This document shows positions 15,501 to 56,905 of a stretch of DNA of 64,000 nt, one piece after another. This stretch comes from Cyanophora paradoxa CCMP329 (lineage: Eukaryota > Plantae > Glaucophyta), in assembly GCA_004431415.1 (NCBI GenBank), contig QPMI01000564.1:1-64000 (forward strand), written 5' to 3'. The notes beneath the pieces were generated by a model. The model searched no databases, was not told the DNA's origin, and was given only the letters and a program-made list of their open reading frames with translations. Both the position numbers and the translations under genes were made by a program. Positions within the stretch are counted from its first letter, which is position 1; every line of letters begins with the position of its first letter.

Positions 15501-15877
15501 GGGGCCGCGCCCGCCGTGCGAAGGATACCGACGCGCTCCGCCGCGACGCAGAGGTCGGCGGAGAGGAGGGCGTAGTCCAGGCGCGCCGCGTTCTGGTCGA
15601 AGCGGTTCGTCTTGCGGTGCCAGCGCGTGTAGATGCGGTCTCGTGGCCGCCTGCGGCGATGTTCGTCGAACAGGTCCAAGTCAGCCATGAGATCGGACCA
15701 GTGCCCGAAGGGGGGCGGTGCGCCGGCGCGGCGGCGGCTTTCTAAATGCGGGAGCGCGTAAGCGTTTAGGTCGCCGCCTAGAGTGAGGGCGTCGTTCGGG
15801 GGAAGCTGGAGCGATTCGATCGCCTGGGTGACGCCTGCCGCCAGGCGTTTCTGCGAGGCTGCGTCATTAGGGGCGTA
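12540..15877 (-). mobile_element. Non-LTR retrotransposon (L1/Tx1-like LINE), 5' part cut off by element 1; 3' boundary approximate
   Basis: APE endonuclease plus reverse transcriptase ORF, with a frameshifted C-terminal region continuing below 13298. GC content drops abruptly after ~15900. Confidence 0.85.
13298..15877 (-). pseudogene. LINE ORF2 (APE endonuclease + reverse transcriptase), N-terminally truncated and frameshifted near 13335
   Basis: Endonuclease motifs YAPN, LGGDLN, RLDYALLS, PDHDAV. RT motifs APGEDGLT, NWRPITLL, QTGFMPDR, DFEKAYDRVEH, LQGDP, QYADD. The ATG-TGT at 15883-15878 comes from the inserted element, not the LINE. Confidence 0.92.
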
Positions 15878-16173
15878 ACACATAGAGAAAGCCCGCGTTT
15901 TATCCCTCGGCTAAGTTTAATTATATTTTGTTTATATTTTACCTATATTTATTGCATATTTTACGTATATTTATGTGTATTTATCCTTTATTCTTGTCTT
16001 TTATGTGCGTATTTCGTATAAATTACTAACGTAACCCTTACTGAAATTTAATTTATTCGTATCTCCGATGTATTTTACCTCTATCTCTCGTAATCATTTG
16101 TATTTGAGGTGGATTTTAAACTTATTTAAATTATATCACGCCTCCTGATAAAACGCGGGCTTTCTCTATGTGT
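15878..16173. repeat. Terminal inverted repeat/hairpin of element 1 (27-bp perfect arms, 242-bp AT-rich spacer)
   Basis: ACACATAGAGAAAGCCCGCGTTTTATC (15878-15904) is the reverse complement of 16147-16173. Confidence 0.95.
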
Positions 16174-16465: not shown

Positions 16466-16556
16466 TGTAACAGGTGTAACAGGTTCATCCCAAACTTTCC
16501 CCTAGGAGGAGGTCGGCGGTTTGGGAGTTTGGGATAGACCTGTTACACCCGTTACA
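16466..16556. promoter_or_regulatory. Putative origin-like cassette A1: inverted tandem TGTAACAGG iterons
   Basis: TGTAACAGGTGTAACAGG, ~55 bp, then CCTGTTACACCCGTTACA. Repeated at 16698 and 28371. Function is inferred. Confidence 0.55.
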
Positions 16557-16697
16557 ACGTAAACAACTACAATGTGCTGTATGGAACGCGGGGCGTATAA
16601 TACAACAAGGATAATATATGATACTTTATGATTACTTATAGTATTCTTTATGACTGAGATTATGTTATTTTAATGGGTTCTTACTGATAATGGTATT

Positions 16698-16788
16698 TGT
16701 AACAGGTGTTACGGGTTCATCCCAAACTTTCCCCTAGGAGAAGGTCGGCGGCTTGGAACTTTGGGGAGAACCTGTTACACCTGTTACA
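16698..16788. promoter_or_regulatory. Putative origin-like cassette A2
   Basis: Near-identical direct copy of 16466-16556. Confidence 0.55.
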
Positions 16789-17268
16789 CTACACTGAAAA
16801 TACATAAATTAACCTGTTACATCTTCTTTTACCACTTATTACCGTGTCGGAAATCTCGATAGCTTATGTCTCTCCGTTTGCGGAGATCCACCAAAGATAC
16901 CTATTATCCTCTCTTCTATTAAACATGATATATTACATGTCTTTCGCTCCGCTAAAAGAAAAGATCTTTAAACTAAACAGTAAAATCAGTTTATTGAGTA
17001 ATTTATAAAAATAATTTGGTTGTTCATCAATAAACACTTACAGTAAACTGTTTTACTGTCTGTTCTATCGTTAACTCTTTCACATTTTGCGAAAACCTTG
17101 ACAATAAAACACTCAGGTAGCCTGATTTTATTGACAGTAAAAATGAAAGCCTCACTGTATATCGTGCGAAAAATGAAAAGCCCCGTGAGCTACACAAATT
17201 GATTTAAGGAAGTTGTGATATAGAGGGTTAAGAAAGAAAAATATTTTCTGTGTAAGAGATAAGTAACA

Positions 17269-17589
17269 ATGGAACCCGTAGCTGATATACCACCTTTCCG
17301 TGAAAATAACAATAGAATTCGCGCTTACAATATTCCGATAGAAGGAAATCCTGCTTTTTCAGAAATTCTTAAATTAAGTATGTTTGCTAATATGCAAATG
17401 CTAACGGTTATACAAGCTATTGAATTTGGACGACATGGATTCGGTGATGATCTTAAACTTACTCATATCTCATCTATTGGATATTATCCGTCTAATACCA
17501 AAGAAGTATATGTTCATACCTATGATAATCGGTTTTGTCGGCTGTATGAAGATGAAGTAGACAAGATCCGTGCTCCTGCGGAGCACTAA
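17269..17589 (+). CDS. Hypothetical viral protein (106 aa)
   Basis: ATG preceded by the conserved ATTTAAGG...AAAAATATTTTCT motif; AT-rich codons. Confidence 0.7.
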   Translation: MEPVADIPPFRENNNRIRAYNIPIEGNPAFSEILKLSMFANMQMLTVIQAIEFGRHGFGDDLKLTHISSIGYYPSNTKEVYVHTYDNRFCRLYEDEVDKIRAPAEH

Positions 17590-17729
17590 GTACGGCGAAG
17601 CCTCGCGGACGCCCTCGCGGCTGTCACAGTCGGCCTATAGGGCACTGGCCAGCGGCCTGGCCGATCGCGAACAGCTTTCTGGCTGGAAGCTGGCTGGCTG
17701 ACGGCCAGTCCAGCTACTACTGGCCGGCT

Positions 17730-19190
17730 AGAGGAATATAACTAGAGAAATATTAATGTACTGAGGAAATAAAGGGAGGCCGGATCCCGGTGCAGGTTGA
17801 GAGGAGATGCATAATATAATATTGTTGAGAGGGAGGCCCGGAAGGGGCGAGGTTCTCGCGGCCAGGCGCATGCACAGAGCTTGCGAATCGCTTAAACAGA
17901 ATCTCGAATGCATATAGCATCGATGTGCGGGGCTACGGAGGCGAGGGCGCGCGGAAAGACGTGCAGGTCCATGCAGGATCGAATTTTCGGGGTCGGCTGG
18001 GTCCTCGCGCCCTGTCGCGCCCTTGGGGCTTGCATTACGCTTTGAAAAGCTCTCAAATGAATATTATAGCGATGCCCATGCGCAAGAATGCGAGGGCGCG
18101 CGGAAAGCGGTTCAGGTCCCTCAAGGATCGAATTTTCGGGGTCGGCTGGGTCCCCGCGGCCCGGCGCATCTGCAAAGCGTGCGGAACGCTTGATCTACAT
18201 CTCAAATGCTTATGCTATTGTTCCGCGCATGCGCCGCGGCGTGGGCGCGCGGAAAGATGTCCGGGCCCGTGCAGGATCGAATTTTTGCCGCCGGCTGGGT
18301 TCGCGTGCTCTTTCGCGTCTTCGAAGCTTGTGGAAGGCTTTGATAAAATCTCAAATGAATATTGTACCGATGCGCATGCGCAAGAATGCGAGGGCGCGCG
18401 GAAAGATGTTCAGGTCTGTCAAGGATCAAATTTTCGGGGTCGGCTGGGTCCTCGCGGCCTGGTGCATTTAGAGACCGTGCGAAAGGCTTCTTCTACATCT
18501 CAAATGCTTATGCTATTGTTGCGCGCATGCGCCGCAGCGTGAGCGCGCGGAAAGATGTCCGGGCCCGTGCAGGATCGAATTTTTGCCATCGGGTACCTTC
18601 CTGCGCTATTCCGGCTCCAAAAAGCGGATTTCGGGGGTGTGCAGGCGCTGCTATGTGTATGCGCGCCAGTTCGCATCGATTGCGCGCGTCGAGGGACCGG
18701 GCGGGACCGGCTGGATCAATGTTTCGAATTCGGCCGATTCTTCGCACTGGAGCGTCGAGGGCGCCCGAAATCGAGCTTGCGGCGATGCGCTCGCGCTCGC
18801 GCGTCATTCTGTATCGTTCTGGGGCGTCCCTGGCGCGATTTCGTCGCGGGACCGGGCGGGACCGGGTCCCACCTTCTGACTCGCACTGCGTTTGTCGGAG
18901 GTTAAGTACCGGAATTGATCCTGGAGGGAATTCGATTTTCGCGGGACGCCCACGGGAGAGCGGTCGTCTTAGGGGAGCCAGGACGCTAAAAATGGATCTA
19001 GAGAGGTCTGTGGGGGTTAGGGTAGGTGAGTCATTAGCGGCAATCGCGTCCGTGTCGAGGCAGAATTAATAATTCTGCCTCGAGGGAGTGCGACACGGAA
19101 ATTATTTAGCAGGGGGGATCTTGAGTGGAAAAAAAGGTTAAAAAAGGAATTAGGGTCGTCGGTTTTTGGGTTTGAGAAAGAGGCTTCGCC
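17730..19190 (+). repeat. Diverged single copy of the 1.3-kb macrosatellite unit inside element 1
   Basis: GGGGCGAGGTTCTCGCGGCCAGGCGCATG and ~149-bp subrepeats match the 34.6-44.3 kb array. Collinear anchors GAGTGGAAAAAAA and AAGAGGCTTCGCC extend to 19190. Confidence 0.85.
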
Positions 19191-19587
19191 TGATGAGGAT
19201 GTAAGGGTAAACATTGATAATTATCGGAAAATCTTAGACTTAACGGATGTTTTCAATGATGAAATTGAGCTACAAAATGAATTAACATTTCTTTTGGTTC
19301 GTGTAAGGGATTATATAGGTAAAAATGCTCGTCGGCTCGAAATTGAAAGGTTGCTACGTCGGGTTTATCTTGATGTGCCAAAACGTGATCTATCACGTGT
19401 TCATGATAAATTCGAAAAATACGGTTTAGTCATCAGAAGCCGTGTAAGTCTCCGTAAGTTGCTATATAAACATGGTGCAATTTGGACAACACGGACAGGA
19501 TGGTATATAGCCGAAAAAAATGAGAGTAATGAAATACTTGTGGACATTTTCGGTGCGCGGCATTACCCATATATTGATGAGTTTTAG
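19191..19587 (+). pseudogene. Hypothetical protein lacking an ATG (probably 5'-truncated)
   Basis: The frame is open from 19030 to 19587 with no ATG. AT-rich coding-like sequence begins right after the repeat copy. Confidence 0.45.
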
Positions 19588-19688
19588 GCAAAAATTGAAA
19601 GCCCCGTGAGCAACACAAAATGATTTAAGGAAGTTGCGATATATAGGGGTAAGAAAGAAAGAGAAAAATTTTTCCGTGACGTATTACA

Positions 19689-19967
19689 ATGTCGCGTGCT
19701 GAAATGTTTAAGGAGATCTCCGATATCATGGAAGCCGCCGAATACTTCTATAAAGAAAACGATACCCTTTACCCTTCTCTGTCTCAAATTGTGGCGATCG
19801 GTTTTTTAGCTGATAGACCCGACCGACTGTATGCAAAGAGTGATGAAAACCACTTTTTCCACTATCAAAAGCAAACTTTAAAAAGAGGAAAGGTGGAATA
19901 CAACGTTAAAGCACTGTTTAACTTTGGCGGCGAGTTCATCCCTCTTATCGAATTCAAAAACCACTAA
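19689..19967 (+). CDS. Hypothetical viral protein (92 aa)
   Basis: The ~100 bp upstream is a near-duplicate of the region upstream of 17269. Confidence 0.7.
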   Translation: MSRAEMFKEISDIMEAAEYFYKENDTLYPSLSQIVAIGFLADRPDRLYAKSDENHFFHYQKQTLKRGKVEYNVKALFNFGGEFIPLIEFKNH

Positions 19968-20875
19968 TCATTACCTAACGCTAAAAATTCCAATTGGAAC
20001 GAATTATCGATACCGTTCATATCTACAACATCACCGTAATAATCACGAAACTCTACCGTTAACTCATTAATCACCAAATTACGATCGTTTATTTTTATGT
20101 ATTCGCCATGCTCTCCGCTATGGTAGATATACTTCCCGATGTCCTGACTTAATTGTAAACGCAAAATTGCGCCTTGGTTCTGTGGTTGCGATCGTGGAAC
20201 TATGTTATGGTTTGCCGCAAATGTGGCAATTTCTTTAATGTGCATATAAATGTATTGTTCAGCGTTCATATCCGCCATCTTTGGACTAACCCCTTTAAAA
20301 GCCATCGGTGCCGCTACTAACTCCGCTCCCTCGAATGTTATACCCCACTGTGGGTGATCCGGTGTTATCGGAGTCCCCGCATAAAATAAGATATTTTCGG
20401 GAGCATATAAAGACCTATTATTATCTATTATCTGTTCTGCGCTTCCTAATAATGTTGTTGCACTGAGACCCAATAACTTAGCTATCCTATTGTTTCCGGC
20501 GATGAGTTCAAAAGCATAATTACTATAAAACTCTAACTTGTATGTCGTCGGATTGTAGTATATCTTAAATAATATATTGTCAGTAACGGCATAATTTAAA
20601 CCATAATTATATGGCTGTGTCACCCCGAAGTGTCCTTGGTTTATGTTACCACTCGGTAACGGAAATACTTGCTGATTGACATAAACGCCATCAATATTAT
20701 ATCGTATGTAAATAAAATCGGTTCCTATTGAATTATAGATACTGTTCGGAATCTCAGCATACAAAACGCGACATTGCCGCGGTTTGGTTATTCGTCTTGT
20801 GAGTGCAACCCTATAAGAGTTTTCTTTTTGTCCTTGTTGTCGATCTCTACTATCGACATTGATAAGACGAATCAT
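19964..20875 (-). CDS. Minor capsid (penton-like) protein A
   Basis: N-terminal VDSRDR...YAEIPNSIYN and C-terminal DYYGDVVDMNGIDNSFQLEF, as in PLV/NCLDV single jelly-roll minor capsid proteins. Confidence 0.75.
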   Translation of the reverse strand: MIRLINVDSRDRQQGQKENSYRVALTRRITKPRQCRVLYAEIPNSIYNSIGTDFIYIRYNIDGVYVNQQVFPLPSGNINQGHFGVTQPYNYGLNYAVTDNILFKIYYNPTTYKLEFYSNYAFELIAGNNRIAKLLGLSATTLLGSAEQIIDNNRSLYAPENILFYAGTPITPDHPQWGITFEGAELVAAPMAFKGVSPKMADMNAEQYIYMHIKEIATFAANHNIVPRSQPQNQGAILRLQLSQDIGKYIYHSGEHGEYIKINDRNLVINELTVEFRDYYGDVVDMNGIDNSFQLEFLALGND

Positions 20876-20904
20876 TTTATTATATGAATATAGATTAAAG
20901 AAAC

Positions 20905-21915
20905 ATGCCGGTCAAATATGTCGAAGTTTCATCATTTAGACAGGCTCCTAATCTCGATGCGCCGACGTCTAAGTTTATCGCTGAATTACCAAAGATGTAT
21001 GAGAATGTAAGAGCTGTCCGACTTGTTTCGGCGGAATTCTATAACTCCATTCCTCTTATCAGCGGTGAAAGTGTCCCCGGAGATGTCACAGTTAATGATT
21101 CTTTCACTATTAATTTTAGTATCGCTAATTCAGCTATCAACTCTACCAATGCACCCGCTCCCGGTTTCGATGTTTGGCGCTCGATTCGTCCCGGTCAAAG
21201 TAGCGGAAGCTTAGTAATTAATACGCATCAGGAATTAGTAAACCGTATTAATACTCGGTTTACTGGTTTAACACCCGATCCTCAAATTAGGTGTAAATGG
21301 GATACCAAAAATAAACGCGTAATATTCTATGCTCCACATGAATTTTACATAGCATTCACAACTGCTAAGGATCCTTCTAGTTCAATGGCTGAAAAATCAA
21401 ACCGACACGGTCGTATGCTTGGACTCGATGCCGGAAGAGCCGGTAACCGTTTCATCAAATCTAACATTTACTCAACTGAATATGATTCAGTTTTTACCGG
21501 TGCTAATGTTCATGGTATCATCTCTACATTCCCTACTAAGAGTTGCAAAGATAACGTATTATTTGTAAGAGTAAAAGAACTGGGTGACCTCGTTCAATGT
21601 GCCGATGGTCTCCTATCTGGATACTTCCATAAACTCGTGGTGCAAGATAAAGACTTTGCGGAACACGTTGTTTATAACTCAACAGAAGCAAACCCGTTAT
21701 ATAAATATTATGGTAAATCATTCTCTATTTCTCAATTGTCTGTAGAAATTGTGAATGCTCAAAACGAATTAATTGATTTCGAAGGGCAACCTGTGCATTT
21801 AACTTTCGAAATCCGATATGGAAATGAGCCCGCCGGTGATCCTATTTATGAGTATTTCAAAATGCGGATGGCGGAAACGCATCCAAATTATCCGGTGATT
21901 TGCAATTTTGGATAA
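20905..21915 (+). CDS. Minor capsid (penton-like) protein B
   Basis: LPKMYENVRAVRLVSAEFYNS and LSVEIVNAQNELIDFEGQPVHLTFEI; paralogue of protein A. Confidence 0.72.
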   Translation: MPVKYVEVSSFRQAPNLDAPTSKFIAELPKMYENVRAVRLVSAEFYNSIPLISGESVPGDVTVNDSFTINFSIANSAINSTNAPAPGFDVWRSIRPGQSSGSLVINTHQELVNRINTRFTGLTPDPQIRCKWDTKNKRVIFYAPHEFYIAFTTAKDPSSSMAEKSNRHGRMLGLDAGRAGNRFIKSNIYSTEYDSVFTGANVHGIISTFPTKSCKDNVLFVRVKELGDLVQCADGLLSGYFHKLVVQDKDFAEHVVYNSTEANPLYKYYGKSFSISQLSVEIVNAQNELIDFEGQPVHLTFEIRYGNEPAGDPIYEYFKMRMAETHPNYPVICNFG

Positions 21916-21966
21916 TTAAGGATCATTCACAGAATTTTTATATTTTATTATTGTAAAAGAGAAAAC

Positions 21967-23367
21967 ATGGACGTCACCACAACCCTCCAACGTCTTTCCC
22001 TCAAAGAGGCGCTAACCACCCCCGAAGACGCGAAGGCGTTCTTCCTCGATAACTCGCTTATGCTTGGTCTGGAATCGAAGACTAAACCCGTTCTCGTTAC
22101 TGTTAGCCCATCGACAACCTTCCCTAACAACGCTGCGCAACGAGTAAGTTTCAAACTTCCACGTTACAACTTTATCGGTAAGCTGGAACTCGCTTTCGAT
22201 CTAAGCGAAATTGCGGGTTTCATCGGTGATACCGATCTTGTTCGTAATGGTTATGTGCGCCCCGTCGGCGCTCTCGTAGAGCGTCTGGAAATCTCGTATG
22301 GCTCTTACCTTTTCACTGTGCCTTCTGATTTCCTCGCTCACTTCCCTCTGGTTTATTATTCGGAGGATCAGCTAGCGAAAAAGAAACGTTCGGCTGGTTT
22401 CCTACACGGCATCCCACAACACGGAACTAACCGACTTGGTGGGTCATTCTTTGTGGAAATCCCGGTGCCATGGTTAAATAGTTACCTACCCCTTGGCGCG
22501 CTCTCAGGTGAAATGGTAGTTACCGCATGGTTCCGTGACCCCGCTAAGGGTGGATTCATTGAGACTTCTTATGGTGGTCGCGCTCTTCCGGTTGTAGGTG
22601 GAACCGCTGCCGATCAAACCGCTAATGACGGTCTCGGAGACGCTACTTATGTAACCCTTGCTAATGTCGGTCAAAACATCACAACTGGAACCATTACCGG
22701 TCTGTCCATTCCATCATCTGCACCTGTGGATACTATTATGATCACCAACCCACGCCTTTACATGCATGCTGTCAATGTTTCCGATGAGCTGTTCGCTACG
22801 GTCATTGAGAAGGTTAAGACTACTGGTATTGCGATCCCGGCTATCGACATCGGCTACGTCGATGCTTTCGATGTTGCCGCCAACGGCAACAACCAACCCA
22901 ACCGTATTAACATTAGCCAAATGTCGGGGCTTGCTTTCGCTCTTCTATTCTCGGTTCGTGACTACCTTAAAACCGGTCAGGATAACAGCGGCTCCCACAG
23001 TGTCCTTAAAACATATGCGGACTCGAAGGATATCACATACACTGTGGAGATTAACGGACAGCGTCTTTATTCCACGGAGCCTATCCCACTCCTCAAAGGT
23101 GCGGAACTCATCGCTGATGCATTCAAGTGTTCGAATATGGACAAGGAAGCTAACCGCTATGTCCTGTCCGGTCTTCCGTTCTGTCTGGACGGAGAGAAGG
23201 CGATTCGTAACATCGCCCAAAGTGGTTATGTCGATCTAACTAACTCCTCATCAAGTTTCCTTACCCTCTACGTCCCACAAAACATGCGCCTTACTGTTAA
23301 CGTGCGCGCTCTCATGCACACTATGTTAATTTGTGATCGCGACGGTCTCAGGCGAGTCAATCTCTAA
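21967..23367 (+). CDS. Major capsid protein (probable double jelly-roll)
   Basis: 466 aa, beta-rich. VSFKLPRYNFIGKLEL resembles the NCLDV/PLV MCP N-terminus. Lies between penton and ATPase; homologue at 56806. Confidence 0.75.
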   Translation: MDVTTTLQRLSLKEALTTPEDAKAFFLDNSLMLGLESKTKPVLVTVSPSTTFPNNAAQRVSFKLPRYNFIGKLELAFDLSEIAGFIGDTDLVRNGYVRPVGALVERLEISYGSYLFTVPSDFLAHFPLVYYSEDQLAKKKRSAGFLHGIPQHGTNRLGGSFFVEIPVPWLNSYLPLGALSGEMVVTAWFRDPAKGGFIETSYGGRALPVVGGTAADQTANDGLGDATYVTLANVGQNITTGTITGLSIPSSAPVDTIMITNPRLYMHAVNVSDELFATVIEKVKTTGIAIPAIDIGYVDAFDVAANGNNQPNRINISQMSGLAFALLFSVRDYLKTGQDNSGSHSVLKTYADSKDITYTVEINGQRLYSTEPIPLLKGAELIADAFKCSNMDKEANRYVLSGLPFCLDGEKAIRNIAQSGYVDLTNSSSSFLTLYVPQNMRLTVNVRALMHTMLICDRDGLRRVNL

Positions 23368-23449
23368 TAAAGAATGTATGTGTTTGTTACCATTATTTAG
23401 TCATATTTCGTTATTTTTATCTGTCTTTATTCAGAAGATCTACAACACC

Positions 23450-24232
23450 ATGGATGATGTCCCCGAATTTAACGCTGGCGAAATGATAAAACCACCTTTT
23501 CGCGTCCTTGCAATCGGAAAATCGGCTACGGGTAAGTCGGAAGCGGTAAAGTATTGGTTAAAACAGTTACACGATCAAAAAAAGTTAGATGTCGTTTTAG
23601 TTGTAAGTGGAACCGCATTTAATCATTTCTGGAATAATGTAGCTACTATACAGCTCGGTAAATGGGATGCGCCTTACATCGCTAAACTTCTCGATGAAAG
23701 ACAAGAGAAAATAGAGAAAGGAGAACCTGTTAACCAATTGTGTGTAGTTCTCGATGATCTTTTAGATAATGAGTTAGTCGACCTAACCCGTGATAAAATT
23801 ATAGGCTCTCTTTACAGTTGGGGGAGGCATTCCCAAATTTCGATAATTTGCATAACTCAGAAACTGCGTAAGGTTTCTTCCACTATTCGCGTTAATTCGG
23901 ATTATGCAATGTTTCTTAGCGCCGCCAATCGCAAAGAACTCGAAGCGATTGAAGAAGAATACAATATAATGCGGGATAAAGACGCTTTTTATAAGATGTT
24001 TGAGGAATACGTGCATTCCTATCAGTTTCTCATTTGGTCATCCGCTGATTATTCGGTAAAGTATTATGTAGATAAAGCGGATCTCGTTAAAAACTTTGGA
24101 TTTCCGCGGTTCCATCGCAAACCTAAAAAGAAAGAAGATGAATTAAAACCACCTGAGAAGGAGGAAGCGCCAAAAGAAATTAAAAGCGCTATTCATACGA
24201 ATAAATTGATGCGATATAAGAGAGGACTTTAA
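23450..24232 (+). CDS. A32-like (FtsK/HerA) DNA packaging ATPase
   Basis: Walker A GKSATGKS, Walker B VVLDD, plus GRH, ITQ and IRVNSDY motifs. Confidence 0.9.
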   Translation: MDDVPEFNAGEMIKPPFRVLAIGKSATGKSEAVKYWLKQLHDQKKLDVVLVVSGTAFNHFWNNVATIQLGKWDAPYIAKLLDERQEKIEKGEPVNQLCVVLDDLLDNELVDLTRDKIIGSLYSWGRHSQISIICITQKLRKVSSTIRVNSDYAMFLSAANRKELEAIEEEYNIMRDKDAFYKMFEEYVHSYQFLIWSSADYSVKYYVDKADLVKNFGFPRFHRKPKKKEDELKPPEKEEAPKEIKSAIHTNKLMRYKRGL

Positions 24233-24260
24233 AAATATCTTCCATATAATTAAAGATACA

Positions 24261-24992
24261 ATGCCGCCAAAACGTAAAGTAGGTGTCCCCGCTGGGGCTA
24301 TTTCATATTCTGGTGGTGAAAGTTACGGATCACTTAATACTACACCTATGAAATTCGACGGAGTTAATCAAGTGAAACCATCGCAACCCGAAGAAGATCC
24401 CTTAAACGCCGCTTATGAAGAATCGCCGGCGGACAAAGCGCCGCAAGCATCGACAAGTGAAACACTCAATGTATCACCGGATGCATCGAAGATGAAGGCG
24501 GTCGGTGAGGGTGCGCGTCGTATTATCGGTGCTGCTGATGATCGCGGTCTTGGTCTACAAGATCTTGCACTTGCTCGTAAAGGTCAAGGTGTTTCGAAAG
24601 AATCGGACAAGGTTATACAATCGATGGCGGGAGAAGTAACTTATAAAGTCGCTCCGACTCAAAACGTCCACCGAATGCCAAAGGCTGAATGGGACACAAT
24701 GACCGCTAAACTACGTGATCTCGAAGCTAAGTCAAGTGCATTAGAACAGTATGTTATGGAGAAGAAAGAACGCGCTAAATTAAAGGAAATGCTGCGTAAA
24801 GAAGTTTATCGCATGGGAATTACGGGACTTCCTGATACTCAATTTATTCGGAAGAAAGAGGCACAAATAGATGATCAAGCGGTAGATGAAATGAATACCA
24901 AAAAGAAGGGAACCATAGAGCCTGGCGCTACCAAAGCGGAAGTAGAGAAAGCCGTAGCACCAACAGTATACAAGCGGAGAGTTTGGCTTTAA
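24261..24992 (+). CDS. Hypothetical low-complexity/coiled-coil protein (possible core or scaffold)
   Basis: MPPK start and coiled-coil segment; positional homologue at 60055. Confidence 0.75.
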   Translation: MPPKRKVGVPAGAISYSGGESYGSLNTTPMKFDGVNQVKPSQPEEDPLNAAYEESPADKAPQASTSETLNVSPDASKMKAVGEGARRIIGAADDRGLGLQDLALARKGQGVSKESDKVIQSMAGEVTYKVAPTQNVHRMPKAEWDTMTAKLRDLEAKSSALEQYVMEKKERAKLKEMLRKEVYRMGITGLPDTQFIRKKEAQIDDQAVDEMNTKKKGTIEPGATKAEVEKAVAPTVYKRRVWL

Positions 24993-25019
24993 ATATATCT
25001 GATTAATAAAGGATTCTCG

Positions 25020-25268
25020 ATGGACTTTCTCCAAAAGATCATAGAGATGTTTAACCTGCACATTGTAAGCAATTGCCATAGCGGGTGCTGTGATACAACC
25101 GTAGAACTTGGTTTTTCAGATACCGAAGATAATGTAACGGAACGTAGAGAGTCCCGGAGACATTCGGTAGATTCCACACATTCAGAACCCGCTACAAATG
25201 GTCGCCGGTTTTCCGTAGATAATAGCGATGATTTACGAAGACAAGCGTTTGATCATCGCGGTAATTAA
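25020..25268 (+). CDS. Small CxSGCC protein
   Basis: IEMFNLHIVSNCHSGCCDTTVE is conserved with 60926. Confidence 0.8.
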   Translation: MDFLQKIIEMFNLHIVSNCHSGCCDTTVELGFSDTEDNVTERRESRRHSVDSTHSEPATNGRRFSVDNSDDLRRQAFDHRGN

Positions 25269-25292
25269 AATATTTGTAATAAGTATCGGAAA

Positions 25293-25418
25293 ATGCTCGA
25301 AGAAGTCTATAATATTATTTTAGCGAAACGTCAGATTTACGCCGTTGCATCTGCGATAGAAAAACGTAGACAAGAGCTTGTCCGGTCACCAAAAAATGAC
25401 AACCCTAAAAGTATTTAA
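25293..25418 (+). CDS. 41-aa ORF not in the ORF track
   Basis: MLEEVYNIILAKRQIYAVASAIEKRRQEL...; syntenic similar ORF at 61300. Confidence 0.5.
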   Translation: MLEEVYNIILAKRQIYAVASAIEKRRQELVRSPKNDNPKSI

Positions 25419-25470
25419 AGAAACAGCGATAATACAAACTGATAAAATATTTTCTGTGCTGAAAGTAAGA

Positions 25471-25746
25471 ATGGCTGCTATCGCCGATGATGTTAGCGTT
25501 ATTGAATTCGAATTCGAAAGTGACAGCGATGAAATTGTTAACTCACCACCAAAGGTTAAACTTAATCCTAAGAGTGCCGATGGGTTAAATTATCGAATCC
25601 GTGAAGTGCTGAGACTGCGAAAGAAGTATGAGGAAGACCCCGAATACCGCGAATTCAAAAAAAAGCAATCTTTGGAGAACTATTACCGTCGCAAAGAATT
25701 GGAAGGTATCCATAGTGCAAAGCGTGGACGTCCTCGCAAATACTGA
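25471..25746 (+). CDS. Small basic DNA-binding protein with C-terminal AT-hook
   Basis: DGLNYRIRE...DPEYREFKK...KRGRPRKY; homologue at 61490. Confidence 0.8.
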   Translation: MAAIADDVSVIEFEFESDSDEIVNSPPKVKLNPKSADGLNYRIREVLRLRKKYEEDPEYREFKKKQSLENYYRRKELEGIHSAKRGRPRKY

Positions 25747-25927
25747 AATGCCGCTATTGCCGCTGAAACATCATTACTTATTTTTCGAGCGGCTTACCGA
25801 TCATATTCGGTAATCCCGTTACAGTTTCCCGATCGAGAAAAAAAAGTGTAGGGCATTTAAAGACAAGGCGCCAAAAAATGATTAACAAGAAAAATTTTTA
25901 TCTTTTGTTAAAGTAGAACGCGCAACG

Positions 25928-28267
25928 ATGGACAGCAAAAGTAAAACCCTGCTTACGAAACTCGCTAATTGGCTCCGCTCTAACGATGAGCTGGCGAAAA
26001 ACCTTCTGATTCCCGTCGATCCTGTCGAAAAGCTTCCGGCTTTCGGTCATAAGGAGGATACATGGAATTGGAAGAGATACGAAGAAGCGGTTAAGTCAAA
26101 CAAGTATGTCGCGTGGGGTATCCTCGCTAAAAACATCCTCTGTGTCGATTTCGATCAGGAAGAAGACTTTAACAAGTTCGAAGAACTCTTTCCTGACGAT
26201 TTTACCGCCGCTATTCCAATCGAAAAGACTAAGAAGGGCTACCATGTGTTCTTTGCACGCCCTCCTAAGTTTGATGAGCTGAAACTATTCGACAAAGCCG
26301 GAGCTTTCAAAGGCTACGAAAAGATCGATTTTAAAACAATTTGCTCTACCGGAACCGCTGGCGTTATCAATGTTTGCCCCTCTCCCGGTAAAACATGGAT
26401 TCGCGAGCCATGGGCTACGGGATGTGAGCTTATCGAGCCATCGGAAGCTTTCCAAAATTGGATGATCGAAAACTATAAACACAATGTTGTTATTAACATC
26501 GACAAAGCAAAGATTACAGGCAATGAGTTCTTAACCACTCTTAATGAGAAACTTATTGAAATTGGCTTTGATTTCCCTTCTATCATCAGTCAAACCGAAA
26601 ATGGCTATAACTTTACTGCTCAGAACAAAGGCGGAATATGCCCCTGCTGCAATAATACACATGATAAGAACAATTGGTATGTGATGAAAGCACAGGGAAA
26701 CGATAAGGACAAATTCGTGGTTTCTAATTACAGTTCCCGATGCAAAAAACTATTTGTTAACATCGTAACGAAAACAGAACAATATGTTAAGCTTACTGGT
26801 CTTATTGATCTTGCGATTGGATCTAATGGCGCTCATTATGATGTCGCAAAAGTAGCTTATGAAGTCCTGAAAGATGATTACCGCTACTCAAATAAGACAT
26901 GGTTCGAATTTGACACTAACTATGGTATTTGGGAGACTGACGAAACCTCAAAGCGTATTTATCTTGCTATGAGCTGCAAGGTTTGCGCGGCATTCATGAA
27001 TCGTTCCTATGAGCTTGGATTTAAAGCCATGAGAGACGAAGAAAACCGCGAATCCTTAGATGAAAAAAGTAAACTCGCTCTCAGTATCGCAAAGAATCTT
27101 AAACAGACTGCTTACCGCACTTCCCTTATGACAGACTTAACCGTTATGTTTAGTTGTCCTACCTTTTTCGAAAGATTGGACACAGTGCCTAACATTATCG
27201 GTTTCACTAATGGTGTTTTCGATCTTAACACTATGACCTTCCGTAAGGGAAAACCCGATGATATGGTTAGCAAGACCGTAGGCTACGAATTCATCGCTGC
27301 TGACCGTCAGAAAATCGCTAAGATTCAGTCCATCTATGCTGATATCATCGAAGATCCCGATGAGCGTAACTATATAATCGGGGCGCTTGCTTTCGCTCTC
27401 ACAGGTCGGACTGATATCCAAAAATTCAATTTCTGGTCTGGAAAAGGTGCTAATGGTAAATCGCTACTGCAAGAAATGGCTAAGAAAACATTCGGCGATT
27501 ACTACGGCTCGATCAGTATGAGCTACTGGACAAAGCCTAAAAAGAATTCATCAGATGCTACGCCCGATCTTGCCGCAATTCTTGGGAAGCGAATCGTATT
27601 CAGTAACGAAGCGGAAGATGGCGATAAGTTGCAAATCAGTAAGATTAAGGAAATTACAGGTGGTAACGAAATGAAGGTTCGCGCTCTCTTTAAGGATCCC
27701 GTCGCCTTTATTCCAATGTGTCAAATCTTCCTATCCACCAATGATAACCTTTCTCTCAGCAAAGCTGACGAAGCTATATTACGTCGGCTCATCTATTGCA
27801 CATTCAAGAGTGTCTTTAAGCCGAATCCTAAGGAAGGTGAAAAGAAAGCCGATATTACCCTAATGCATCTTCTCAATGACGACAAGTATAAAATGGCTCA
27901 AATGTCTATATTCTTGGACATGTTTAGAACGCAAGACCTTGCCGACCTAATGCAAAATCCGCCCCAATCTATTATCGATTACGGATCAGAATATTTCGCT
28001 GAAAATGATAAGATCGGTGAATGGATCAGAAATACTTATGAAAAGACAGGAAACCGCGACGACTTTGTTTCAAGTGATTCTATCATGAAGAAGTATAGAC
28101 AAGTGGATGATAAGGCGGAACCGACAAGCATCGGTAAACGGATGCGCGAGATTTTTAATGTTAAGTCTGAGTCTAAGCGTGAAAGGGGCGCGGTTATTCG
28201 TGGATACTACGGTATTAAAGCCATAATTCACCATAACGAATTTGTGGATGATGATGTAGAAGCGTAA
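25928..28267 (+). CDS. Prim-Pol-type primase fused to D5/P4-type SF3 helicase
   Basis: CVDFD and TKKGYHVFF (Prim-Pol); CPCC zinc-like segment; FTNGVFDL (D5_N); Walker A GKGANGKS; KEITGG and LSTND. Confidence 0.9.
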   Translation: MDSKSKTLLTKLANWLRSNDELAKNLLIPVDPVEKLPAFGHKEDTWNWKRYEEAVKSNKYVAWGILAKNILCVDFDQEEDFNKFEELFPDDFTAAIPIEKTKKGYHVFFARPPKFDELKLFDKAGAFKGYEKIDFKTICSTGTAGVINVCPSPGKTWIREPWATGCELIEPSEAFQNWMIENYKHNVVINIDKAKITGNEFLTTLNEKLIEIGFDFPSIISQTENGYNFTAQNKGGICPCCNNTHDKNNWYVMKAQGNDKDKFVVSNYSSRCKKLFVNIVTKTEQYVKLTGLIDLAIGSNGAHYDVAKVAYEVLKDDYRYSNKTWFEFDTNYGIWETDETSKRIYLAMSCKVCAAFMNRSYELGFKAMRDEENRESLDEKSKLALSIAKNLKQTAYRTSLMTDLTVMFSCPTFFERLDTVPNIIGFTNGVFDLNTMTFRKGKPDDMVSKTVGYEFIAADRQKIAKIQSIYADIIEDPDERNYIIGALAFALTGRTDIQKFNFWSGKGANGKSLLQEMAKKTFGDYYGSISMSYWTKPKKNSSDATPDLAAILGKRIVFSNEAEDGDKLQISKIKEITGGNEMKVRALFKDPVAFIPMCQIFLSTNDNLSLSKADEAILRRLIYCTFKSVFKPNPKEGEKKADITLMHLLNDDKYKMAQMSIFLDMFRTQDLADLMQNPPQSIIDYGSEYFAENDKIGEWIRNTYEKTGNRDDFVSSDSIMKKYRQVDDKAEPTSIGKRMREIFNVKSESKRERGAVIRGYYGIKAIIHHNEFVDDDVEA

Positions 28268-28370
28268 ATATAAATGAATTGAATGATTACTTTCTTACTA
28301 TTTTTTATAACCTTACTGTGTATGGTAAGAATTAACAATGTAACAGGTGGTTTTTTGGTTTTCAGTCTCA

Positions 28371-28461
28371 TGTAACAGGTGTAACAGGTCTATCCCAAAG
28401 TTCCGACCTCCGACCCCCCTCCTAGGGGAAAGTTTGGGATGAACCTGTTACACCTGTTACA
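28371..28461. promoter_or_regulatory. Putative origin-like cassette A3 (inverted relative to A1/A2), just downstream of the primase-helicase
   Basis: Reverse-complement copy of 16466-16556. Confidence 0.6.
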
Positions 28462-28860: not shown

Positions 28861-31800
28861 ATGCCCCGCCAAACTAATAGACTTATCAAAGAAAAGAAAA
28901 ATGAGATTCTCGGACTGTTAGGAACCCTTTTAGCCACCGGTGAAATCACAGAAGCGGAATATGATAGAGAAGCCGCCATTTTAGATCGGAAGCCGCGACT
29001 ACAACAACTTACCGATATCGCTAATGACCTCTACGATCGCATGCAAAGAATGGAAGACTTTATGGACGAAGGACAACGCTTAGGAGCGATTGAACCCGAA
29101 GTAGAAGATGGTGAGGCAATGAATCAGGCTTACTCGTGGCATTCTTACCGCGCAAGAAATCAAATAGTTGTGGATACTATCGATTATTTGGAACGCATCG
29201 CTACTAACCTTCCACAGCGAATTAGAACGAAGTTAGAACAACTCAGAGCCGTTAAAGTCCGTCTTACATTCGTTTGTCGGTTCGTTAAAGTAAGTAATGA
29301 ACGCATTTTTATTACTAAATACATTTACAGTGACTACTTTGTTATCACGCGATCCCGTAATATAAATACGGAATTGCGTAAAGCTCTACAAGAAATGCAA
29401 GAGCAAATGAAACAAGTAGATAGTTACCGTTTGGATCGCTTAGAGATCCTTAGGGTAGTTATCATGTCTTACGCACCGGTAGGTGGTTGCTATTTCTCTA
29501 CTCCCGAATGGATCGCAAGAAAGAAAGCAACCGTTAATGTTAAGAATATCGATGGACAAGATTGTTTTAAATATGCTATTTTGGCTCATCTACACCGAAA
29601 GGACATTAACCGCCATAAAAGCTATGATCCCATTCAATATCGCCGTTGGCTTAATGAACTGAACTTTAATAATATCGAATTTCCGGTAGCATGTGATGCT
29701 GATGTTATCGATCGATTCGAAGAACAGAACCCGGACTTATCGGTTAATATCTACGGTGCCGATAACGAAAAGGAGTCATTCTATCCGTTACATATGTCGA
29801 GCAATTCACGTAGAAAGAATAAGATTAACCTTTTACTCATTGAAAATACGGAGGAGAATAGAGGACATTATGTAGCTATCGTGTCTCTAAGTCGCCTCCT
29901 TAAAACCACGTTCGATAAAGCATGTGATGGACGCATTTATTACTGTGAAACCTGTCTATCACGTTTCCGATCTCAGGCGAAATTAGACCTACACATAGAA
30001 GCTAATCGGTGCATCGATTGGAGGGAAAGTAAAGGAAAATGTCCGAAACCTGATACTTACATGGAATTCGGATTAAAACACCTAAGAAAGACTGTATGGC
30101 TTCCTGTGATTTGTTACGTTAAAATCGAAGATCATTCGGTATCTATCGGAGCAAATAAAAGTAAACGTGAAATTAAAGCTGTGTCACTGAGAGTGGTAAT
30201 AGGAGAAGAGGTGGTAGCTTTTCATTTTGAGGGAGCCGATCCTTTGGGTTCGCTGTTCGCAAAACTCATAGAAATAAGACCGCATGTAGTGCAAACTCTA
30301 TTTAGAAATATTCCCATGCATCCACTCACAGAAGATCAGAAGGCGGAATATAGAACCACAAAACATTGTTATATTTGCTTGCAACGATTCACAGCCGAAA
30401 ACGTTTCGGTTCGCGATCACTGTCACCAAACGGGCGATTATATCGGGAAAGCATGCCGAAACTGTAACCTCCATAGACGAATCTCTAAACAAACAAAAGT
30501 AGCTATCGTGGTGGATCAAATGGACGAATGCGGACATGGGATATTCCGAAAGATTGCCCAACAAGACGACACACAACGTGTGGAAATTCTAAGTAAAAAT
30601 TTCGATCAATACCTTTTGCTACAATGGGGCATGTGGAAATTCATCGATGCATCACATTTTATGGATTTCCAAAGTGCAAATGTCGATGATCTTATGTTTA
30701 AATTCGAAGAATTCCGTAAATTGGCGTTCTCGCAATATGGATTAGATCCATGTCATTACGTTAGCGCTCCGGGTCTATCATGGGACGCTATGTTAAAACA
30801 TACAAAGGCAAAGATTGCACTTATCGATGATGTAGAGAAATACGAATTTATTGAAAGAGCCATAAGGGGTGGATTTGCCACAATGCCCACACGATATGCA
30901 AAGGTAGAGAATCCCGATGATCATATAGTTTTATTAGACGCAAATAATCTTTATGGTTATGCACTCAGCCAACCTTTACCTATTGGTGACTATCGATGGG
31001 AAGAAACCACAGAGGCACTAAAAGAAGTAGAAGGACGAAACGCATTTATTGAGGTCGATTTAGAATATCCTATTTCCCTCGAAGATCATTATGATTTTCC
31101 ACTTATTGTGAATAAAGAAGTGATCACAACAGATATGTTAGGTGAATACCAACAAAACCTATTATATATGACAGGTGAAAAGTTAACCAAAGATCCACGA
31201 CTTACAGCAACATTTACACCAAAGACTAACTATGTCATCTCACAACCTCTACTTATCTATCTTGTTAAAAAGGGTGTAGTCATAAAGGCGATTCATAAGG
31301 TGATCTCATTCGCTACGTCCCCTTTCATGAAATCTTACATAGCTCTAAATACAAGACTACGACACGAATCAGGGAATAGATTCGAAAGCGACTTTTTTAA
31401 ACTCATGAATAATGCGATATATGGAAAATGCTTAGAATCTTGTAGGGGTCGCTCTTCTGTAAAGATCGCCAATAGTGAGAAACTATGTAAGAAATATGCC
31501 GCAAGTCCACTTATCAAAGCAACCAATGTATTAAACGAAAACGCCGTAGCGTTTGAAATGTATTCGAAACATGTAAACTTAGATAAACCCGTAGCTATTG
31601 GTGCTTTCGTTTTGGATTTCGCAAAGTTACATAATTATCAATTCTTTTATGAGGTGGTAAAAAAGAAATGGGAAATGGCTAAGCTACTTTTCCACGATAC
31701 CGATTCGTTCTGTCTATTTCTGAAAACTGATAATTTAAATGCGGACATGAAAGCCATCGGTGAACACCTCGATAGGAGTAATTATAATCGCGATCATCAT

Positions 31801-32141
31801 TATTTAGTTTGTCGAATCGATTGACTCCGGGGAAGTATAAAAACGAATTCCCAAATGCAAAGATCTTAGAATATGTGGGTTTGAGATCGAAACTTTACGC
31901 TTTCAGAACTGAAACCTATGAAAAAATAAAAATGTCCGGAACAGCATCGAAAGAAGTCCATTTTGACGATTTTAAGAAATGTCTATTCGAAGGTATCACC
32001 AAAACAGTAACAGTAAGAAACAAGCGACGGCAAGACCACAGCCTATATGATTTGGAGAGTAGAAGGGTGGCGCTAAACCAAATCAATAGCAAAAGGAAGA
32101 TATCAAACGACGGCATTCACAGTATCCCATTTGGTGTCTGA
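28861..32141 (+). CDS. polB: Polinton/adintovirus-type protein-primed DNA polymerase B (one frameshift at ~31798)
   Basis: DANNLYGYALSQPLP, FKLMNNAIYGK, HDTDS and GLRSKLY motifs, plus the EndoVII-like RDHCHQTG...CRNCNL. Adding one base gives DHPLFSLSNRLTPGKYKNE, joining the two ORFs. Confidence 0.92.
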
Positions 32142-46362: not shown

Positions 46363-46386
46363 AAAATGAAAAAAACGACATATACA

Positions 46387-46701: not shown

Positions 46702-46740
46702 CGCTTTTATATTTACCGGAGAAAATAATTTCGGGGTTTG

Positions 46741-46900
46741 TTATGAACGAGATGACCGAAGAATGCGCGTAGTAGGGGCTGTATAGCTTGCGCTCTGATT
46801 CTTGAATGATTTATACCACCGCTGACTGTTTACCTCTGAGAGCTTCTCAGTGCCGGCAATCGTTAATTTCGCGAGCTCTCTAAGCGCCCTCTTAGTCTTC
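46741..46900 (-). pseudogene. 3' remnant of a gene interrupted by element 2
   Basis: The frame KTKRALRELAKLTIAGTEKLSEVNSQRWYKSFKNQ...SSRS* is open up to the hairpin and has no ATG. Confidence 0.55.
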
Positions 46901-46972
46901 ACACATATAAAAACAAATATTATTATCCCTCGCGTTCCGCTCAGGATAATAATATTTGTTTTTATATGTGTG
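46900..46972. repeat. Terminal hairpin of element 2 (29-bp perfect stem, 15-nt loop)
   Basis: CACACATATAAAAACAAATATTATTATCC, loop CTCGCGTTCCGCTCA, then the exact reverse complement. Confidence 0.95.
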
Positions 46973-47231: not shown

Positions 47232-48140
47232 ATAGGGTGGGGCGGGTGGGGTGAGGTGGGGCATTTTTTTGAATTCCCTAAAATGTTTCACTCCCAAAAA
47301 TTCTTGGTCAAAAAAGACCCCACCCAACCCCACTTACCCCACCCTGTATTATTCTCTTTATCTATGATTGATTTCAATGTAATTTAAATATAAATATGTA
47401 TGATTGAGTATGTTAAATTAATACTGGGTGGGGTGTGAGGGTGGGGTGTGAGTGGTATCGGTATGGTAGTCCAATCTAAGATGGCACACATAAAATCATG
47501 ATGTGTTATTTTTACTTCCGGTTTGATACTTATCGGACTTCGATAACTTCGATAGGGTGGGGCGGGTGGGGTGAGGTGGGGCATTTTTTTGAATTCCCTA
47601 AAATAATTCCCCCTCAAAAATTCTTGGTCAAAAAAGACCCCACCCAACCCCACTTACCCCACCCTGTATCTTTTATTATATTTATGATTGATTTCAATGT
47701 AATTAATGTATAAAGTATAGAGATTATGTATGTTAAATTAATACCGGGTGGGGTGTGAGGGTGGGGTGTGAAAGTGGTATCAGCCAACCATTTAATAATT
47801 ACGATATTGAACCGACGTGATACCGACGAGATATGATATATTCAGATCGTATTAGAACGGCGCGATCACTAAGAAAAACAAGTATCATGTGCTGTATATT
47901 TCGCGATCCCTGAATCGCGAATCGATAGGGTGGGGTGAGAAAGTGGGGCACCACCCTCACTGTATACACTGTGATATGATCGCAATCCCGATGTAGCCTA
48001 CTATGATATCGTGCGGACTTCGATAGGGTGGGGTAAGTGGGGTGAGGTGGGGCATTTTTTTGAATCCCTTAAATTTTTGGGGGGTCAAATATTTTTGGGC
48101 AAAAAAGACCCCACCCAACCCCACCCTCCCCACCCTGTAT
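47232..48140. promoter_or_regulatory. Three origin-like cassettes with inverted GTGGGG/CCCCAC iterons (47232-47349, 47552-47669, 48023-48140)
   Basis: GGGTGGGG...GTGGGG...GTGGGG, ~55-60 bp, then CCCCAC...CCCCAC...CCCCACCC. Copies 1-2 lie in a 320-bp tandem duplication. Function is inferred. Confidence 0.55.
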
Positions 48141-55486: not shown

Positions 55487-56905
55487 ATGCGCGAGTATCT
55501 CAGCATCAGTAGCCGTGATCGATCAGAGGGCTCGGCTCATTCCTATAAGGTGACCCTTCCAAAGCAATACCACAATGTGAAGAGCATCGCTGTGCGACAG
55601 ATCGAATTTTCCAACACGATTCCGACGGTTCCAAGCCCTCAATTCTATACTGAAATCGGGGAGACGAAAGCCGATGATGCTAATACGATTTTCATATCAT
55701 TTCCTTACCGATTTTCGAGTGGACAGCTCAATGGTGCCACTGAGCAAATAAGAGAAACACAAGCGACTGCAATATATGACGCTTACAAAGCCATAGATGC
55801 TGGCGACCAAGGCAACTATATACCGCCTGATTACCTAAACACTTTCAGAAGATATACCCGATACAGAGACGTAGCAATTACGATCCCTCCGGGCACATAC
55901 TCGACTGGAACCGACCTTGCCACTGCAATCGATAACATCTTAACGAAAAATGGAACTGGCAACTACATCAAGGATATGATCGACACAAAAATTAATCCAA
56001 GCTACGCATCGACAGGAGGAACCTTTTACCCGGTGGTGAGATGTCGTTTTGAGAGCACATTAAATGCTATATGCTTTTATTCGAGTGATTATGTCTACAT
56101 AGCTTTCACGAAATATGGACCGAGTAATGCCACTGCGTCTACTGCGAATGAAAGAAAGGTGCTCGCCTATCGCACGATGACTCTTCTCGGGTTTACATCG
56201 ATCAGAGAGAATATAATGATAGATCAATACAACGGATCGGGCTACACAGCCTTCGCTGGGAGCGGTGTCGTTTACTCAGCTGGTGATGCATTCCGCAATT
56301 ATAATTCGACGGCTCTGGTCTTAGGCATAGCCGGAGGCACTGCCCCTGATTATACACCGGATAATGCAATAGTTTTAAAGATCACAGAGCCGGACTGCTC
56401 GCTTTTTACGACATGCACCGAGGCTACTAATGGATTCCTCGCTAAGATCCCGATTTCGAAAGGCACAGCCTATGCGGATGCTGAGCTAATTAATTATGGG
56501 GCGGATGCTTTCACGAAATACTTTAACACCCGCCTCTCCTTTGATAGTTTAACCGTTCAAATTCTCACGGAGAGCGGTTATAGGTATTTCCTCGGAAGCT
56601 GTGAGCACACATTCATTTTGGAAATTACTATGGGAGTGGATGAGCCCGACGACGATTTACAGCGCATTGTTAATAAGGGATTCGCGAAAATGCTATATGA
56701 GGACTACCCGCATTGCGGCAATTTAACGAATGCGTTGAGCGGGGTGGCTGTAAAAATAATCCGTTCTTCTAAAATAAATTTCTCAGCGGAAGATAAAAAC
56801 GAAATATGGATCCCACGACCTCGCTTAGCCGCCTCACGCTCAAATCCGTCCTGGAAACCCCGGAGGACTACAAGAGCATGCTTTTGGATCGCGGATTTAT
56901 CGTAG
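55487..56905 (+). CDS. Penton-like protein B homologue (true stop probably near 56730)
   Basis: ISSRDR...LPKQYHNVKSI...IEFSNTIP and HTFILEI. The read-through overlaps the MCP gene, suggesting an indel. Confidence 0.72.
   Translation: MREYLSISSRDRSEGSAHSYKVTLPKQYHNVKSIAVRQIEFSNTIPTVPSPQFYTEIGETKADDANTIFISFPYRFSSGQLNGATEQIRETQATAIYDAYKAIDAGDQGNYIPPDYLNTFRRYTRYRDVAITIPPGTYSTGTDLATAIDNILTKNGTGNYIKDMIDTKINPSYASTGGTFYPVVRCRFESTLNAICFYSSDYVYIAFTKYGPSNATASTANERKVLAYRTMTLLGFTSIRENIMIDQYNGSGYTAFAGSGVVYSAGDAFRNYNSTALVLGIAGGTAPDYTPDNAIVLKITEPDCSLFTTCTEATNGFLAKIPISKGTAYADAELINYGADAFTKYFNTRLSFDSLTVQILTESGYRYFLGSCEHTFILEITMGVDEPDDDLQRIVNKGFAKMLYEDYPHCGNLTNALSGVAVKIIRSSKINFSAEDKNEIWIPRPRLAASRSNPSWKPRRTTRACFWIADLS

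Follow-up and report, generated by a model that had tools for sequence, protein, structure and literature searches.

Facing iteron cassettes as likely helicase-cognate origins in two virus-like elements of Cyanophora paradoxa and in a virophage clade

The closest described counterparts of the repeats analysed here are the replication origins of Staphylococcus aureus pathogenicity islands (SaPIs). As described in the available parts of PMC9371898, SaPI replication initiators (Reps) bind penta- or hexanucleotide iterons located right after their own gene through a C-terminal winged helix, and the AT-rich centre of the origin is bordered on either side by two or more iterons in opposed orientation. 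For the initiator PriRep5, the available text of 10.64898/2026.10.17.759575 gives TGCAACC as the iteron bound by the winged helices. We studied 64,000 nucleotides of the glaucophyte Cyanophora paradoxa CCMP329 (contig QPMI01000564.1, positions 1 to 64,000, forward strand; hereafter the window), in which two virus-like elements, elements 1 and 2, each encode a superfamily 3 (SF3) primase-helicase and carry compact cassettes of short words iterated in two facing arms. In phage P4, the alpha protein, a primase-helicase of the D5/P4 family, uses a C-terminal winged helix to bind short repeats, both direct and inverted, and replication also needs a second, distant repeat region; the word and layout of the P4 origin differ from those of the window cassettes.

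The SaPI module (Rep1, PriRep5) resembles that of element 1 in several respects. The SF3 primase-helicase of element 1 matches SaPI5 PriRep in fold (7ola, Z 28.6), and the third cassette of this element places at least two opposed short iterons per side right after this gene. Furthermore, the word differs between islands with different Reps, and the TGCAACC of PriRep5 resembles the core of the element 1 word. In contrast to the SaPI origin, which according to the available descriptions lies next to rep, extends over ~300 bp, and contains 6-12 iterons and an AT-rich centre of ~100 bp, the cassettes described here are compact (91-130 bp), occur in three copies (up to five in virophage loci) that are spread over the genome or stacked at an end, and belong to elements of a eukaryotic host.

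Polinton-like viruses and virophages share with the two elements a capsid-ATPase module (the capsid being probable in the elements), exchangeable replicases of the archaeo-eukaryotic primase (AEP)/SF3 type, tandem integration, and terminal palindromes (at the left ends of the elements), according to the accessible text of PMC11296320, 10.64898/2026.10.13.758929, and 10.64898/2026.07.28.741278. Replicase turnover in these viruses is reported in the same three sources and in PMC12220804, and PMC11296320 hypothesises, in its accessible part, that inverted terminal repeats serve as the origin for the primase-helicase. Neither iteron cassettes nor a helicase-linked change of word is described in the accessible portions of the first three sources, and our literature search found no mapped origins of virophages or of Polinton-like viruses with a primase-helicase. 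By analogy, the cassettes likely represent a bacterial kind of iteron origin, cognate to the helicase, in eukaryotic viruses.

Cassettes and helicases of the window elements

Both elements carry three cassettes, in which the words recur with a period of 9-10 bp in two facing arms (Table 1). The original prediction had described three cassettes with a ~55-bp spacer in element 1, two near its left end and one inverted after the helicase gene, and this arrangement is confirmed at 16466, 16698, and 28371. Each of these cassettes is 91 bp long with a 55-bp spacer, and four perfect words are present in the third only. Cassette 3 is the reverse complement of cassettes 1 and 2 (80 and 76 of 91 bases identical, respectively) and begins 103 bp 3' of the stop codon of helicase 1 (28267), which parallels the position of the SaPI iterons right after rep. 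Extra single words of the TGTAACAGG type are found at 16813 and 28339, and the two-arm pattern of element 1 has five matches in the window vs. none in 100 shuffles. For element 2, the predicted three GTGGGG cassettes were also found; their geometry departs from the two-word arms that had been expected, with three words per arm, a 56-bp spacer, and an extra doublet about 85-98 bp downstream. A motif-blind finder, for which a 6-mer must recur within both arms, two or more times per arm and in inverted orientation, with the arms 25-95 bp apart, recovered five of the six cassettes in 38.5 kb of element DNA (100 first-order Markov resamples: mean 0.01, maximum 1), the second cassette of element 1 escaping owing to its mismatches. 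The spacers are 45-47% AT in element 1 (flanks 62-75%) and 70-71% AT in element 2. Five of the six cassettes sit in the gene-free element ends, and a single cassette type is present at each end. In addition, one 16-bp motif occurs at 16367, 16564, and 47169, about 65-135 bp upstream of the first cassettes in both elements despite their differing words, and is possibly a site for a shared factor.

The helicases of the two elements differ as well. Although they occupy the same gene slot, helicase 1 and helicase 2 have no significant BLASTP alignment (best E 0.57), and the small ORF (open reading frame) just upstream is kept between the elements while both helicase and word differ. An AlphaFold2 model of helicase 1 based on a 21-row alignment (mean pLDDT (predicted local distance difference test) 68.9) matches African swine fever virus C962R, poxvirus D5, and SaPI5 PriRep in structure comparison; for the latter, model residues 284-771 align with residues 318-762 of 7ola (393 aligned, root mean square deviation 5.6). 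Residues 695-765, aligned through 7ola residue 762, follow a helix-strand-helix-helix-strand order that is winged-helix-like, with a modest pLDDT of about 43-73, and a single-sequence fold of the C-terminal 100 aa is poor (pLDDT 46.6). Neither helicase gave a match when searched against viral contigs, nor did protein P0122. By analogy with the SaPI Reps, helicase 1 is the likely initiator for the TGTAACAGG cassettes and helicase 2 the likely initiator for the GTGGGG cassettes.

Word and helicase type in virophages and phage contigs

A virophage capsid query returned 44 loci (72-100% identical, near copies included; 32 different capsids among the 40 aligned). In this freshwater-type clade (L157-L202), 38 of the 44 loci contain cassettes, 70 in 501 kb with one to five per locus, and their spacers are 67% AT vs. 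57% for whole loci. At least eight word variants occur, with one word type per locus: none of the 38 loci has two complete types. The record search was given the 29 longer loci; 28 records were searched and 14 contain an SF3 helicase, whose class was assigned by its match to window helicase 2 or to the D5_N helicase of the virophage locus L071. Three records (G005, G007, and G015) encode a ~780-aa helicase that matches window helicase 2 (30-34%) and not the L071 helicase, and the 11 others encode an 857-902-aa D5_N helicase that is 46-100% identical to that of L071. Among these 14 records, the TGTAGGG pattern is found in exactly G005, G007, and G015, where it is the only cassette type. A GTG-core pattern is present in 10 of the 11 D5_N records, and the eleventh (G008, locus L167) has three TAGTGAGG cassettes, which also have a GTG core. 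All three TGTAGGG records have cassette-like matches within about 1 kb of the helicase, and such matches lie about 620 bp upstream of the helicase in G001, G006, and G020.

Other genes remain similar across this switch of word. Compared with record G001, the TGTAGGG records are 87-98% identical in the ATPase, 88-94% in the capsid, and 92-96% in an ORF without a Pfam match that we take, from its motif, to be a tyrosine recombinase, whereas most GTG-type records reach 78-85% in this putative recombinase. At least three changes are required to explain the placement of the five TGTAGGG rows on the capsid tree, and their grouping as a single clade is rejected (approximately unbiased test, p 2.7e-76); these changes may be one gain and two losses. 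This independent clade thus supports, as a correlation, a cognate pairing of helicase and word (3/3 vs. 11/11). The predicted co-variation of motif and helicase is supported within the virophages, where the word tracks neither the capsid tree nor the putative recombinase, and it breaks down across families, where the pairing of GTGGGG is reversed; the window adds two cases.

Cassettes far from the helicase show gain, loss, and inversion between related loci. At a site 1.7 kb upstream of the capsid gene, between conserved flanks, the cassette is of the TGTAGGG type in L162 and L164 and of the GTGGGG type in L163. [quoted passage not shown] The cassette that is present in L158 and absent in L159 is 142 bp long, with an ~18-bp direct repeat at its edges. 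In L158, the sole mixed locus, a TGTAGGG cassette is reduced to its left arm and spacer, i.e. a half-deleted copy of the other type. In the window, the copies 9-11 kb from helicase 1 carry the word of helicase 1. As cassettes 4-11 kb from the helicase carry the resident word, and copies of the old type are absent or half deleted, a second step beyond a module swap is needed. The proposal that origin and initiator are exchanged as a module can thus be kept for the helicase-adjacent copy only.

Outside this clade, the relationship between word and helicase is looser. Scans of viral contigs for cassettes yielded 62 loci for TGTAACAGG, using a single-pair pattern, and 14 for GTGGGG. Most of the 62 are chance pairs inside ORFs; the cassette finder listing was applied to 15 of them, picked by eye, and the true loci, in phage contigs, adjoin proteins of the DUF927 (L014, L030), AAA_25 (L027), Toprim-D5_N (L040), and DUF3854-DUF5906 (L002) types. 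The GTGGGG loci, in contrast, are iterated cassettes in all 14 cases. Of these, six distinct cassettes are located where a gene for a Toprim, DUF3854, D5_N, CHC2-finger, Prim-Pol, or VapE protein has its 3' end. Virophage DNA accounts for three loci (L066, L068, and L071), which encode a Sputnik-type capsid together with a D5_N helicase. Since true cassettes stand beside many helicase and primase types, their geometry is widespread and the word is no predictor of helicase class. An all-against-all comparison of 15 helicase C-terminal stretches gave no grouping by word. Within the D5_N class there is a weak trend, the C-terminal domain of G020 scoring best with those of G014 and G016 (106 and 104 bits vs. 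86-99 for eight others), and G014 has the word of G020.

The best 80 of 533 D5 loci, mostly giant-virus contigs, contain four cassette matches in 937 kb; only L135 has a cassette at the helicase end at the 6-mer level, with a weak 5-mer match in L118. The cassette of L135 (16-kb contig, 3015-3115) has the same geometry but is built from a third word, GGGCCGTCA, with a period of 9 bp, and lies 19 bp 3' of the stop codon of the D5 helicase. Searches of metagenome contigs with the L135 helicase and a capsid alignment gave no match. The strict cassette finder detected none at the D5 primase stop of seven annotated phages. By eye, wider, unannotated opposed repeats are seen right after this stop in three of the seven (L206, L207, and L208; Latilactobacillus, Methanoculleus, and Lacticaseibacillus viruses, respectively) and in none of the four actinophages.

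Origin reading and its alternatives

We assign a probability of about 0.7 to the reading that the cassettes are SaPI-like iteron origins of self-loading SF3 helicases, a judgement made by analogy. As the word differs genome-wide with helicase type in the virophages, the cassettes are likely start sites of DNA copying by that helicase. By analogy to SaPI, the SF3 primase-helicase of the element would bind a cassette through its C-terminal winged-helix domain, with one hexamer per arm, and the bound helicase would load itself and melt the DNA so that the origin fires. Recombination in the shared flanks would bring in a new helicase together with the cassette next to it. The new cassette would then be copied to, or selected at, other non-coding sites, and cassettes with the old word would be deleted or decay, leaving one word per genome.

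Several observations weigh against this reading. Within the window, only two elements can be compared, and the window ends before the 3' side of helicase 2; with element capsids only 38% identical, lineage drift alone could explain the two words. The element 1 spacers lack an AT-rich melting region (45-47% AT), and we therefore propose that these cassettes work like a SaPI origin but do not class them as one. At the C-terminus of helicase 1, Pfam gives no winged-helix match and the wing region of the model has a pLDDT below 50. In the virophages, as few as two or three events may underlie the 3-vs-11 split, and of the five TGTAGGG rows in the capsid tree, three have a known helicase. The helicase class paired with GTGGGG is that of element 2 in the window and D5_N in virophages, and TGTAACAGG is found beside DUF927, AAA_25, DUF5906, and D5_N proteins in phage contigs. 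Finally, C-terminal 115-aa stretches of helicases next to the same word are no more alike (mean z 1.11, 38 pairs) than others (0.94, 67 pairs). The location and folding of the virophage cassettes, discussed next, also count against an origin function.

The alternative that best withstands the data, though we consider it unlikely, is that the cassettes are signals for transcript 3' ends, i.e. fold-back polyadenylation or termination hairpins as in Mimivirus and Sputnik, with letters that drift freely. A hairpin polyadenylation signal is reported for Sputnik (PMC6723459, available part), and the signals described there likewise take the form of palindromes between virophage genes, in many cases at the 3' end of a gene. 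Single-stranded, the cassettes fold well, and in the virophages they prefer gene 3' ends, occupying 22 of 64 convergent, 40 of 240 tandem, and 3 of 44 divergent gaps (ORFs of at least 100 aa, loci not dereplicated). Positions between the words also pair above chance (99/179; word positions 419/533), as fits a hairpin role. Giant-virus hairpins typically have short loops, in contrast to the cassette loops of 55-90 nt. As described in the available part of PMC6723459, the Mimivirus and Sputnik signal has no iterated words and is not tied to the helicase, and a 3'-end signal offers no explanation for words with a 9-10-bp period, one word per genome, and a switch with the helicase. Moreover, the five cassettes in the gene-free element ends are not located at gene 3' ends, divergent ORFs flank 4 of the 16 cassettes of six virophage loci, and cassettes are missing at homologous sites of near-identical genomes. 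Secondary use as a terminator is compatible with an origin function, and the cassettes may serve both roles.

A slightly less probable view is that the words are sites of another protein that travels with the helicase, such as the small Zn-ribbon or basic ORF or, with arm sites, a recombinase, and act in regulation, recombination, or packaging rather than initiation. Several dispersed copies are unusual for origins of 20-30-kb genomes, and clusters at element ends could be integration or packaging signals. The comparison of co-travelling genes in the TGTAGGG records covered genes with a homologue among the queries. In these records, the Zn-ribbon ORF next to the virophage helicase is rearranged and down to 46-52% identity; it is equally diverged in GTG-type records (45-68%) and does not separate the classes. 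The putative recombinase of the TGTAGGG records is closer to that of G001 than in most GTG-type records, the small ORF of the window is conserved while the word differs, and Pfam and PHROG profile scans found no integrase among the scanned ORFs of element 1. Least probable of all is that the cassettes are palindromic insertions of small size, either selfish or copied passively (products of template switching or elements resembling miniature inverted-repeat transposable elements), the helicase link being shared ancestry of a few recombinant genomes: the direct repeat at the L158/L159 presence-absence site, the L157/L163 flip at one site, and the showing of two or three independent switches only would fit, whereas the lack of two complete types in any of the 38 loci, the half deletion of the second type in L158, and the recurrence of the geometry at the 3' end of primase-helicase genes, both in phage contigs that are unrelated and in annotated phages, speak against it.

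If they are origins, the cassettes offer a cis-element explanation for replicase turnover and a simple sequence marker of replicon type. At ~100 bp, they are testable origin candidates with a built-in specificity control, namely a swap of word or helicase. The available text on SaPI origins describes no such genome-wide switch of word in multiple copies. It is conceivable, although we would not yet favour it, that virophages and Polinton-like viruses in general use several compact origins of the bacterial-satellite type per genome, read by their own primase-helicase, that a helicase swap rewrites the whole set, and that the word acts as a replicon-identity tag separating co-resident or co-infecting siblings.

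Genomic setting and public sequencing runs

Table 1. Positions of cassettes, genes, and repeats in the 64,000-nt window
Feature	Position	Strand	Remarks
318-bp satellite	about 3-12.4 kb
LINE (long interspersed nuclear element) reverse transcriptase ORF	13298-15883		5'-cut; abuts left end of element 1
Element 1	15878 to about 34.6 kb		AT-rich, virus-like
Left end of element 1	15878..16173		27-bp perfect inverted repeat around AT-rich stretch (242 bp between arms)
Element 1 cassette 1	16466..16556	+	(TGTAACAGG)2, 55 bp, (CCTGTTACA)2; one mismatch in outer right copy
Element 1 cassette 2	16698..16788	+	two mismatches in inner left copy; with cassette 1 in ~200-230-bp tandem duplication
Two divergent ORFs	19964..21915		303 and 336 aa; probably minor-capsid-like (from position; without curated family)
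Probable double-jelly-roll major capsid protein, element 1	21967..23367	+	38% identical to that of element 2
A32-type packaging ATPase, element 1	23378..24232	+	Pfam Pox_A32, E 5.5e-11
Small basic ORF upstream of helicase 1	25396..25746	+	71% identical over 58 aa to same-place ORF in element 2
Helicase 1	25928..28267	+	Prim-Pol, D5_N, and SF3 ATPase (Pfam Prim-Pol, D5_N, DUF5906); predicted winged-helix-like C-terminal domain
Element 1 cassette 3	28371..28461	-	inverted; four perfect 9-mers
Family B DNA polymerase-like ORF	28861..31824	+	endonuclease VII-like insert
Tandem array	34.6-44.3 kb (34596-44350)		~1.3-kb GC-rich unit; at expected place of right end of element 1
Element 2	about 46900 to 64000		virus-like; cut by window end
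Probable left end of element 2	46900..46972		near-perfect 73-bp terminal palindrome/hairpin; folding z -13.6
Element 2 cassette 1	47237..47342	+	(GTGGGG)3, 56 bp, (CCCCAC)3; doublet 47428-47446
Element 2 cassette 2	47557..47662	+	101/106 bases as cassette 1; doublet 47748-47766
Element 2 cassette 3	48028..48133	+	86/106 bases as cassette 1; doublet 48232-48249
Probable major capsid protein, element 2	56806..58254	+
A32-type packaging ATPase, element 2	59108..60031	+	Pfam Pox_A32
Helicase 2	61931..64000	+	PriCT-2 and SF3 ATPase (DUF5906) without D5_N; cut by window end

Elements 1 and 2 share their gene order, with two probable minor-capsid genes, a probable major capsid gene, an A32 ATPase, three small ORFs, and the primase-helicase. 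In both, the packaging ATPase adjoins the capsid gene region, as expected of a Polinton-like virus. The window capsid has no Pfam or PHROG match and three homologues only, the nearest being a EukProt protein. The homologue P0001 (58% identical) has Atlas feature matches of 0.97-0.98 to Capsid_N clusters with a weak recognition score, below the threshold of the tool. The terminal palindromes of the two elements are homologous, with ACACAT-N17-TATCCCTCG (first and last letters of the arm) in common. Repeat analysis of the window found no matching right end for element 1, and scans of the window found neither tRNA genes nor Rfam families.

A short ORF in another frame (31809-32141), with a weak PHROG match, continues the polymerase-like ORF after its stop at 31824 and is possibly part of a frameshifted gene. 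Only element 2 has an HNH-AP2 endonuclease gene (58329-59051), located between capsid and ATPase. Element 1 contains a ~1.6-kb GC-rich unit (17594-19190) with 149-bp internal repeats, bounded by inverted 11-mers and of the same family as the ~1.3-kb array. The region from 44350 to 46900, between the array and element 2, may be the remnant of a third element; it contains genes for S-adenosylmethionine decarboxylase and a DUF5710 protein as well as short tandem repeats, and one 63-bp block in it recurs at 48339-48400. Promoter-like conserved blocks precede several small ORFs and both helicases (17169-17239, 19590-19660, 25360-25469, 25840-25919, 61369-61479, and 61845-61923), and loose ends in public contigs suggest recombination at such blocks.

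The 60-64 kb stretch is present in 20 of 21 listed public runs, and a search by DNA among the listed runs found no RNA run with the queried stretch. In run X1, a single contig spans the helicase 1 stop codon and the left arm of cassette 3, and contigs pile up on the cassette arms to a summed depth, which is not a copy number, of about 6,600-7,000 vs. 240-450 in the flanks. Two further places with a high summed depth are the beginning of the polymerase gene and the small ORF that precedes helicase 2. Loose contig ends show additional spacer variants behind the same cassette arms, and two loose ends at the small ORF upstream of helicase 2 translate, by eye, to the small ORF of element 1. These patterns of depth and loose ends fit a family of mosaic elements in which the helicase slot varies and its flanks are shared. 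One public-run contig extends 640 bases beyond window position 64000, and a public-run contig carries a paralogue of helicase 1 that is 83% alike over 27950-28127 and unalignable towards the C-terminus.

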